Part shown: in pieces, positions 60,701 through 63,700 of the stretch
How the letters are laid out: every line of letters starts with the position of its first letter
How positions within the stretch are numbered: position 1 is the first letter of the stretch
Source: Escherichia coli
GTDB taxonomy: Bacteria; Pseudomonadota; Gammaproteobacteria; Enterobacterales; Enterobacteriaceae
DNA: 64,000 bases
Direction: 5' to 3' (one strand)
Assembly (NCBI RefSeq): GCF_003334405.1
Contig: NZ_QOWM01000001.1
Made by a program: the position numbers

Positions 60701-63700
60701 AGCAAAATCGCTATCTTCGGTGTGGTGATGCGTCTGTTCCTCTACGCACCGGTGGGTGACAGCGAAGCGATTCGCGTGGTGCTGGCGATTATCGCCTTTG
60801 CCTCCATCATCTTCGGTAACCTGATGGCGCTGAGCCAGACCAATATCAAACGTCTGCTCGGTTACTCATCTATCTCTCACCTCGGCTATCTGCTGGTAGC
60901 GCTGATTGCGCTGCAAACCGGCGAGATGTCGATGGAAGCGGTAGGGGTTTACCTGGCCGGTTATCTGTTCAGCAGCCTCGGCGCGTTCGGCGTGGTCAGC
61001 CTGATGTCCAGCCCGTATCGTGGCCCGGATGCTGATTCCCTGTTCTCTTACCGCGGTCTGTTCTGGCATCGTCCGATCCTCGCGGCAGTGATGACGGTGA
61101 TGATGCTGTCTCTGGCCGGTATCCCGATGACGCTGGGCTTTATCGGTAAGTTCTACGTGCTGGCGGTCGGTGTCCAGGCACACTTGTGGTGGCTGGTGGG
61201 TGCCGTGGTTGTCGGTTCGGCAATCGGCCTCTACTACTACCTGCGCGTGGCGGTGAGCCTGTATCTTCACGCCCCGGAACAACCGGGTCGCGATGCACCA
61301 TCAAACTGGCAGTACAGCGCGGGCGGTATCGTTGTGCTGATCTCTGCACTGTTGGTACTGGTGCTGGGTGTATGGCCACAACCGCTGATTAGCATTGTGC
61401 GTTTGGCAATGCCGCTGATGTAATCTGTTACTTTGTAAGTCAGAAAGCCGCCGACATGCTCGGCGGTTTTTCTGAAAAAGAAGGGATAGTAGATAGACGC
61501 AGAGCGTTAAGTGAACTGTGTACGACTATCGCCAAAATACTCTAAACATAACTGCCTGAATTTTGCCCGCCATTCATCGATATTAAAATCATAGCGTTCC
61601 TGAAATGCAGTCGTTTCACTGGACATTATCCAGGCATAATTATGTAACAGGGTTAATGCCTGAAGCGGTTTTCTCTGCGCAAAATAAGTATCAACACACA
61701 TCTGCATCAAGGGGTAATTATTATTTTCCTTTGTTCCTCCAAAGCTAAGATCTAATCCTTGTTCTTTAATGCACTGAATCACAGGATCATCCTGGAAATT
61801 CGGGACATCTGCGGCCTGTGACAGCAAATGAATGACTTTATTGTCAGGAACACCAAATGCCCAATTGCCAAGATAAGCATTAAGCGCAGCCTGTGCTGCA
61901 GCTTCTGTTTTTTTACATCGGCGATACTGGATTGCCAGTGCTAACCAATATTCGCTGACTTCAGGCAATTGTTCTGTTGCTCGCTGTAACAGTGGCAGTG
62001 CGTCATCAAGCCTTCCCGTTGAAAGACATTTCCGAGCAACACGGAAGAGATTTGCTGCAAAGTCTTGATCTTCGATGCTGATGCCATTTTCATGGGGATC
62101 ATCATCATTCACTTCCAGCCATTCTTCGAACTTCTTAATGCTGGAAAAGGCAGGTACGATTCGCCATTCGTCATGGTACGTTTCGCACACTATAGGTAGT
62201 TTATGCTCCTGACCAATAGGCCAGTACAAACCGAAACAGTCTCCGTTACCATATGCTGCATCTGTAAGTACGGTAAATCCGTTCGGAGGAAAAGGCCCCG
62301 GGCAAATTCCATCAATGCCAGGTGAAATATCACTACTGCGAGGAATAAGTTTCATCATGTTCCTTCACATAAAAATTTATGTAAACATCCGCTTATCTGT
62401 TTATATAAATGTTTTAATCCCACCAACAAGTAACCGGATGCATACCCACAGGGACTTCAACCCATCCATGCTCCGTATCTTCTGACCATCCTTCCCAGCA
62501 CTCATCAGGGGCAATTTCTTCTACAAACCAGCTCTGAACTTCTTCTGGTGAAGCAGTGGTGATAACTAAAATACTTTCACTAAAGGGCCAGTCTGGGTCA
62601 TCGAACATCGTAATTTCTACCAAAACATCACTAACATTGTTACGCTCACGTATTTTCAGAAAATGGTGATAGATAGCTTGCGGAGATTGTTCTGGAATCA
62701 CATTGCAACATATTGAACCATGGATATTATTGTCAATAAAAAAATCCTCAAGAGATAACAATGGACGAGGAGTATCAGGATTATTAACATCACCATTGAT
62801 ATTAACAAGTTGGGTAATGCGTTCTAAAGGTGTCATAATTATTCCCTGAAATAATATATTCATCAAACGAATGACATTGTTTGAATTCATTAGCAGATAA
62901 ATAGTGACAATTCCATACGTATTATTAGTTTCAAGAGCATCATAACATGAATGTTAAGCAGGAAAACGTGAGATATTCAGTCAGGCCGGGTCGTTATCCA
63001 GACGTTGTTATATTTAATATCATAAATATTTAAAGGGGTTTGACATGGAATGGTTAAGTGAAATTCGTAAACTTCGGAAGAACGTACCTGTCGGTATCCA
63101 GGTTGCCAGACGTTTGTTAGAGAGGACTGGCGGTGATGTTGATGAAGCCATCAAGTTGTTTCATATTGACCAAATCAATATATTGACGGCAAAAGCAGAC
63201 GTCACTCATCAGGAAGCAGAGAATGTTTTGTTGGCTACAAACTATGATATTGCAGAAGCTCTTCGGCGTATTGATGAACAACGCTATACACTGACGGAAT
63301 TGATTTTGCGTAAAAATAAGGATGCCGGAGATGCCTTAAACAATATAGCATTGGCGATTGAATATGAGTGGGATCTCAAGCGTAAGTTTTGGTTTGGTTT
63401 TGCAGATATCCAATTATTACCGCCAGTTTTACAAACATTTATGCTGGTTTATGAATGGCATGAATATGTTGGTTGGGAAGGAATGGAGTGTGGGATATTT
63501 TTTGAAAGTGATCATACTCACCAGCAATTGCAAGCTTTGGGGTTATTAGAACTCGCCCAAAAAATGGTTACTGCAAGAATCCGATATGATGAGCTAAAAG
63601 ACAAGGCCGAAAATTTTCACGAGATTACAGAGGATGACATATTCAAAATGCTTATAATACATTGTGACCAACTTGCAAGAGAGGTTGATTCTATATTACT

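Follow-up and report, generated by a model that had tools for sequence, protein, structure and literature searches.

The UBA-like superfamily (Pfam clan UBA; SCOP a.5.2) consists of compact three-helix bundles of ~40 residues. A well-known bacterial example is the N-terminal (TS-N) domain of EF-Ts (PDB 1efu_B, 1aip_C and 7vmx_A), which carries the signature L-R-x2-T-G-x-G-h...K-x-A-L...G-D (PROSITE EF_TS_1). Bacterial UBA-like modules other than that of EF-Ts are, to our knowledge, rare. Eukaryotic and archaeal members include the single UBAs of NAC, HYPK, Dcn1, p47 and FAM100B, together with CUE domains, which mostly bind ubiquitin, NEDD8 or a partner. The eukaryotic ubiquitin-system proteins HOIP (UBA pair PF16678; 5x0w) and UBAP1 (SOUBA; 4ae4) carry tandem or overlapping UBAs, and the UBA of the eukaryotic kinase TNK1 (7tcy, 9nge), an appendage that binds poly-ubiquitin, is a five-helix ‘double’ UBA. 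A second point of reference is the Neisseria DNA-mimic protein DMP19 (NMB0541; PDB 3vjz/3wur; Pfam PF14300, DMP19/DUF4375), described as a novel all-alpha fold that blocks the XRE-type regulator NHTF and HU (PMC3384305; PMC5722371). Here we analyse yfbN, an uncharacterised Escherichia coli K-12 gene for which we found no dedicated study in the literature. It lies in a 64,000-nt stretch of E. coli DNA (contig NZ_QOWM01000001.1 of assembly GCF_003334405.1; hereafter the window), where the product of the open reading frame at 63045–63761 is 100% identical to E. coli ‘protein YfbN’. In its predicted structure, a double UBA-like head of five helices sits on a DMP19-like body.

The AlphaFold2 model of YfbN, built on an alignment of eight sequences, is all-alpha, with a predicted local distance difference test score (pLDDT) of 91.4 and a predicted TM-score (pTM) of 0.77. 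Its first five helices span residues 4–13, 18–28, 32–51, 55–64 and 69–80, and residues 1–82 modelled alone gave identical helices (pLDDT 91.3). Each of the two predicted modules is a compact three-helix bundle of the UBA-like type. Helix 32–51 serves both bundles, closing module 1 as its third helix and opening module 2 as its first, and therefore the head forms one five-helix unit. An alignment of 88 family members (A3) was cut into profiles of module 1 (residues 1–42) and module 2 (residues 40–82), which hhalign aligned in register over 37 columns (5–41 against 42–78) with a probability of 94.9% and an E-value of 4.4e-8. Because the score of 30.7 lies far above those of 200 column-shuffled controls (mean 7.1, standard deviation 1.6, maximum 13.0) and of a reversed control (10.3), the two modules are true internal repeats, homologous to each other. 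Conserved residues are L10, R11, P15, G17, L25, G30-D31, A35 and F39 in module 1, and K50, A58, L62, Y67-D68 and I76 in module 2.

Sequence matches of the head are individually weak and mutually consistent. The Pfam model UBA_4 matches residues 19–42, with an E-value of 0.0032 for full-length YfbN and 5.5e-4 for residues 1–82; the few other weak Pfam matches of residues 1–82 include UBA_HYPK, CUE, TAP_C and DSX_dimer. UBA_4 is found at E ≤ 0.1 in 23 of the 88 family members and at E ≤ 0.001 in one only, and UBA_8, TAP_C, UBA_HYPK and UBA_HOIP recur among them. NCBIfam returned just two matches of YfbN, the UBA region of NAC (E 0.0016) and the C-terminal domain of the clamp-loader delta' subunit. 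When PDB sequences were searched, the N-terminal profile matched the TNK1 UBA (E 1.8e-4), archaeal NAC UBA (0.015) and EF-Ts residues 6–46 (0.32). The 88-member profile matched Dcn1, TNK1, FAM100B, Ede1, p47, EF-Ts, OTUD7A, NAC and Mex67, along with weak, unrelated matches to V-ATPase subunit G and Utp11. Module 1 aligns with EF-Ts, UBA_4 and CUE, and module 2 with NAC (1tr8), Dcn1 (2l4e), p47 (1v92), FAM100B (2dzl) and HYPK.

The case for a UBA-like head comes from the predicted structure and the consistency of these weak matches; sequence taken by itself is marginal. A three-helix bundle is a small fold that convergence produces repeatedly, each single sequence E-value is marginal (0.0002–0.3), and the head is probably packed against the body (pTM 0.77), so one might instead regard the N-terminal helices as a generic segment of one larger domain and their likeness to UBA as a small-fold coincidence. 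We hold this to be very unlikely, since nearly all weak Pfam and PDB matches belong to the UBA clan, independently for both modules, and the family conserves the loop-2 G/N-D helix cap and core Leu/Ala positions typical of UBA. The first-pass annotation of 63045–63300, which encodes residues 1–85, had read two UBA-like motifs of EF-Ts N-terminal type at this end of the protein. That structural interpretation stands because the predicted fold and the UBA-clan matches agree, and we found no confident match to a different fold. The label ‘EF-Ts type’ applies to module 1 only, where EF-Ts is not the best match, and module 2 is nearer to the UBAs of NAC, Dcn1 and p47. The residue spacing proposed for both motifs is exact at residues 18–35 (I-Q-V-A-R-R-L-L-E-R-T-G-G-D-V-D-E-A) and partial at residues 55–72, where T65, D68 and A72 are kept and the G and E positions are lost.

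TNK1 is the sole entry that aligns over both modules, with 76 residues at 20% identity and a fairly high root-mean-square deviation (3.7–3.9 Å). Unlike the UBA of this eukaryotic kinase, however, the YfbN head is bacterial, has no loop of the M-G-F type and is joined to a DMP19-like domain. HOIP and UBAP1, which unlike YfbN belong to the eukaryotic ubiquitin system, score much lower. The ubiquitin-contact loop M-G-F/Y is absent from both modules, its place being taken by V-P-V-G-I in module 1 and K-A-D-V-T in module 2; the family consensus there is P-I-G in module 1, with no Gly in module 2. In this respect the modules differ from the single domains of the UBA clan, and PF00627, the canonical ubiquitin-binding UBA family, was not among the Pfam matches of YfbN or of the 88 members. 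These observations bear on the idea that YfbN binds ubiquitin or a ubiquitin-like protein of a eukaryotic host, in functional linkage with the nearby deubiquitinase ElaD. The top structural matches, TDP2, Dcn1, TNK1, Ede1 and Rad23, are genuine ubiquitin-binding UBAs, and elaD (Peptidase_C48) lies ~4 kb from yfbN in the same E. coli island. Against this, and besides the missing contact loop, free-living Bacteroidota, Chitinophaga and Hymenobacter among them, hold most of the family, elaD is not near the gene in relatives, and no N-terminal signal-like sequence was seen in the alignments, which were inspected by eye with no predictor run. We judge a role in host ubiquitin binding extremely improbable.

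Module 1 superposes on the EF-Ts TS-N domain, at 1.0–1.3 Å over 43–44 residues, and shares with it the spacing L-R...G...A-L...G-D-h-x-x-A-I. Residues 6–46 of 1efu_B align to YfbN residues 5–45 (E 0.2–0.3), and hhalign against the EF-Ts N-terminus gave an E-value of 7e-5 and a probability of 63%. Within the EF-Ts signature, L10-R11, G17 and G30-D31 are present in YfbN and strongly conserved, whereas the T-G positions are V/I-P. YfbN also has two modules where EF-Ts has one, and no EF-Ts family match to the core (dimerisation/exchange) domain was found past residue ~50. One could imagine a translation-linked factor that modulates protein synthesis, with module 1 docking on EF-Tu or the NAC-like module 2 on the ribosome. 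In module 1, conservation peaks at the L-R and G of the EF-Ts signature, and archaeal NAC UBA is among the sequence matches of module 2. However, Nxf2, Dcn1, TAP and TNK1 all outscore EF-Ts as UBA-like matches, the T-G of the signature is replaced, and the EF-Ts core, the driver of nucleotide exchange, is absent. With the evidence from gene neighbourhoods given below, this leaves a translation factor quite unlikely.

Residues ~83–231 form the all-alpha body, whose predicted structure has the DMP19 fold. Besides members of the YfbN family, Foldseek against AFDB50 returned a 168-residue ‘DUF4375 domain-containing protein’ at an E-value of 7e-4, with a target TM-score of 0.81 and 24% identity. 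Identity to DMP19 itself is 13%; DMP19 has no UBA-like head, and YfbN is the less acidic of the two. The Pfam model PF14300 gave weak matches (E 0.043–0.049) in three family members only and none in YfbN itself. With a good Foldseek match, weak Pfam matches and negative sequence searches of the PDB, the relation to DMP19 is well supported at the level of the predicted fold and unproven at the level of sequence. The first-pass annotation had found this part of the protein rich in Trp and acidic residues and otherwise unlike anything recognisable. Its composition is indeed so, with four Trp, 28 Asp and Glu against 16 Lys and Arg, and an isoelectric point (pI) of 4.9 outside the two modules; the lack of resemblance is overturned by the predicted DMP19-like fold. 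As the linker is modelled confidently (pLDDT ~90) and the whole-model pTM is 0.77, the prediction suggests that head and body form one compact unit.

YfbN belongs to a family of its own. When 1.84 billion representatives, in clusters at 50% identity, were searched exhaustively with a profile, 239 proteins matched at E ≤ 1e-3, of which 154 reached E ≤ 1e-10 and 74 reached E ≤ 1e-30; almost all have 230–250 residues and match end to end. They occur mostly in Bacteroidota (named members come from Chitinophaga, Hymenobacter, Chryseobacterium, Aureivirga, Dysgonomonas, Taibaiella and Aquimarina) and Enterobacterales (Superficieibacter, Leminorella, Budvicia and Escherichia), with one Janthinobacterium metagenome-assembled genome (MAG). 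A word-indexed search had returned 19 proteins, as if YfbN were an orphan restricted to Escherichia; the exhaustive search exposed this as an artefact of sensitivity. Weak domain matches aside, no family-level match was found in Pfam, NCBIfam, PADLOC or PHROG. Named members in the sequence collection are all labelled hypothetical, and AFDB entries are mostly ‘Uncharacterized protein’ with a few automatic domain labels. Three of these labels, ‘Novel E3 ligase domain’, ‘GntR C-terminal’ and ‘V-ATPase subunit H’, were rejected as spurious, the corresponding Pfam families recurring in none of the 88 members. Independent AFDB models of relatives superpose at TM-scores of 0.8–0.95.

Conservation extends beyond the head. 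T82–K90 of the connector are invariant in the eight-sequence alignment, with a family consensus of T-x-T-E-(R/L)-I-L-R-K; W116, the motif E-W-x-x-Y-x-x-(W/Y)-E-G and the C-terminal L-Y-x-x-V-x-x-N-I-x-x-F-P are also conserved, and W138 and E145 are at least 90% conserved among the 88 diverse members. A shorter subfamily of ~200 residues, with R-H-W-R-N at its end, has no connector segment but retains both the double head and the E-W...E-G core, and in one protein (P0162) the UBA-like head is joined to an unrelated C-terminus. A 4090-residue protein of eukaryotic NACHT-LRR type (P0098) was discarded as a member: its E-value of 1.4e-27 is an artefact of summing 29 weak repeat matches to profile positions 72–124, a case that illustrates how repeat proteins inflate whole-sequence E-values. 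Copies of yfbN 100% identical to that of E. coli also appear under alien taxa, in a ‘Bacillota bacterium’ MAG (L014; 2776-bp contig) and in ‘Streptomyces antimycoticus’ (AFDB A0ABD5JR91), and these are almost certainly E. coli contamination of the assemblies. The fusion of head and body, a bacterial double head built round a shared helix, and the family as such are all unannotated in the four databases searched. The UBA-like and DMP19-like folds are already known, and the assignments extend known superfamilies and establish no new principle.

Because UBA-like modules are fused here to a DMP19-like fold, the family may represent a class of proteins that bind or inhibit other proteins without being enzymes. 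For YfbN itself, we give about an even chance to its being a soluble, cytoplasmic, non-enzymatic protein that binds a partner protein stoichiometrically and would thereby occlude or sequester it. The mildly acidic body would cover a basic surface of the partner, such as a nucleic-acid-binding surface or an active site, in the way that DMP19 covers HU and the transcription factor NHTF. The head would provide a second protein–protein docking surface, possibly for self-association, by analogy with the UBA-like modules of EF-Ts (which binds EF-Tu), NAC, Dcn1 and TNK1. The gene would be a horizontally acquired, stand-alone accessory gene outside any fixed operon. We count in favour of stoichiometric binding that no enzyme signature was found in Pfam, NCBIfam, PADLOC or PHROG, that the C-domain has a pI of 4.9, that the architecture is fixed and the gene solitary and of low GC, and that DMP19 has a known function of this kind; induction by SlyA and the two phenotypes described next are added to these.

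Over-production of SlyA raises yfbN expression 2.8-fold, and in the two operons for which its action had already been characterised, SlyA activates by counteracting repression by H-NS (PMC5797941). Expression by RNA sequencing is very low, with a base mean of 16 (PMC9068703). The gene is among those that stay up-regulated after recombinant-protein induction, and its deletion raised the yield of green fluorescent protein (GFP) per biomass from 0.16 to 0.42 (~2.6-fold) and did not raise that of asparaginase (PMC7376861). In a TIC/TAC overexpression screen of retron-Sen2, whose toxin is RcaT, a yfbN plasmid was in the ‘blocker validation’ set of plasmids that relieve RcaT toxicity, and yfbO, listed as a TAC (trigger) match for this retron, was also tested because it is linked to yfbN (bioRxiv 10.1101/2020.06.22.160242). 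A role of YfbN as binder and blocker fits the reported block of RcaT on overexpression, and both the toxin block and the gain in yield on deletion acquire a testable molecular basis. The gain in recombinant protein yield would also suit the translation-linked role considered above, as would the presence of translation genes among the other RcaT blockers of the same screen.

Several points weigh against stoichiometric binding by a DMP19-like body. Searches of PDB sequences with the family profile, the C-terminal profile and P0126 did not find DMP19, the latter two returning noise (GldL, NMDA receptor and similar), and a word-indexed search with the C-terminal profile, tried as a bridge to PF14300, gave close relatives only. 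The models are predictions from only eight sequences. Across the family the pI of the C-domain spans 4.2–9.3 with a median of 5.2, and acidity that is so moderate and non-uniform, as calculated from sequence, argues against a conserved, strict DNA mimicry. The phenotypes were scored at the level of screens and could be secondary effects; a general damping of expression from plasmids would account for the RcaT block and the GFP yield alike. The partner, finally, is hypothetical.

The neighbourhoods of homologues, of which we examined ~15, describe yfbN as a mobile, stand-alone accessory gene. No conserved gene neighbour was found across these contexts; one locus search yielded eight loci, too few for neighbourhood statistics. 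The nearest non-Escherichia homologues follow directly after nuoN with neither yfbO nor yfbP beside them, and these two genes were thus rejected as conserved operon partners. Other homologues lie among housekeeping genes (kdgK, ppsA, queD, an ABC permease), and linkage to translation genes was seen in none of the contexts, a further point against a translation factor. A Dysgonomonas sp. homologue (L012/L013:8001–8702) sits inside a trp operon, between flavodoxin-like and chorismate mutase genes, with trpE/G/D upstream and trpC/F/A downstream.

Proteins rich in Trp and acidic residues and helical in structure are typical of immunity families. Three homologues, from Chryseobacterium (L005/L020) and Aureivirga (L007), are embedded in long arrays of small, same-strand genes of unknown function, and the Aureivirga array, with more than 20 such genes, also carries SUFU and DUF4240 proteins. 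Directly downstream of the Chitinophaga niastensis homologue (L019:6880–10064) are Vsr-like, C5 DNA methylase and HATPase_c_3 genes, families that were assigned to open reading frames by size, and which form a restriction-modification or defence-type cluster. Adding the accessory character of yfbN, its place in an E. coli low-GC island and the block of the RcaT toxin, one may picture YfbN as an immunity-type orphan, derived from systems of polymorphic toxins or interbacterial conflict, that would neutralise an incoming toxin domain by binding it directly. However, a toxin gene (Rhs, contact-dependent inhibition, type VI secretion or similar) is adjacent in none of the ~15 contexts, most copies are solitary amid housekeeping genes (nuoN/elaC, kdgK, ppsA, queD, the trp operon), recognised Imm families are almost absent from the arrays, and PADLOC gave no matches. 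We therefore rate an immunity function as unlikely.

A broader proposal, which we regard as improbable to a similar degree, extends the binder and blocker role to the whole family as a widespread stand-alone decoy or blocker whose DMP19-like body and double head would bind toxins or nucleic-acid-acting effectors such as RcaT and neutralise them directly, with yfbO–yfbN as a chromosomal trigger–blocker module analogous to recE–racC. In one variant the EF-Ts-like head would target EF-Tu. The trigger yfbO and the blocker yfbN may form a pair; the lack of yfbO beside the nearest non-Escherichia homologues weighs against this. Two genes downstream of the Aureivirga sp. CE67 homologue, a stand-alone 165-residue protein (L007:10107–10604) matches EF-Tu domain 3 over residues 62–159 (NCBIfam EF-Tu, E 2.5e-6; Pfam GTP_EFTU_D3, E 5.7e-6). 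It could be an EF-Tu decoy, and its position near a yfbN homologue is counted for the translation-linked role.

At the end of the nuo operon in the window the gene order is nuoN, yfbP(−), yfbO(−) and yfbN(+), and the features of yfbN are collected in Table 1. GC content falls sharply from 55–60% in nuo to 36–45% across yfbP–yfbO–yfbN (~61450–64000), pointing to an island, gained by horizontal transfer, that separates nuoN from elaC. A longer E. coli contig shows the further island genes yfbM (DUF1877), yfbL (M28 peptidase), yfbK (VWA) and elaD (C48 deubiquitinase). A scan for promoters and terminators around yfbN did no better than on shuffled sequence, and no paralogue of either YfbN domain was found in the window or in loci L001–L013. 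We found yfbN in 980 of 5426 complete E. coli genomes (18%), 953 of these at ≥99% identity, so that ~82% are without the gene.

Table 1. Coordinates of yfbN and its features in the 64,000-nt window
Feature	Coordinates	Strand	Details
yfbN coding sequence	63045..63761	+	238 aa plus stop; from the open reading frame list; homologues start at the same Met
Shine-Dalgarno-like AAAGGGG	63032..63038	+	6 nt 5' of the yfbN ATG; read from sequence
UBA-like module 1, residues ~4–41	63054..63167	+	Predicted helices 4–13, 18–28, 32–41; EF-Ts-N / UBA_4-like; AlphaFold2, Pfam, hhalign
UBA-like module 2, residues ~42–80	63168..63284	+	Predicted helices 42–51 (continuing helix 32–51), 55–64, 69–80; NAC / Dcn1 / p47-UBA-like; AlphaFold2
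Connector Y-T-L-T-E-L-I-L-R-K, residues 81–90	63285..63314	+	Helix 83–90; strongly conserved; leads from head to C-terminal domain
C-terminal all-alpha domain, residues ~83–231	63291..63737	+	Predicted DMP19-like (DUF4375) fold; conserved L-Y-x-x-V-x-x-N-I-x-x-F-P at its end
Family signature E-W-x-x-Y-x-x-W-E-G, residues 137–146	63453..63482	+	From alignments

In some E. coli genomes yfbN is split by IS1 (NZ_CP122758.1:1514321–1515814; NZ_CP044293.1:794131–795624). Its neighbour yfbO (62414–62890, minus strand) is divergent from it and belongs to Pfam family PF27222. Further upstream, yfbP (61507–62358, minus strand; 282 aa) is without a precomputed Pfam family and gives weak TPR-like and type-III-chaperone-like NCBIfam matches around residues 93–162 (E 0.03–0.08).

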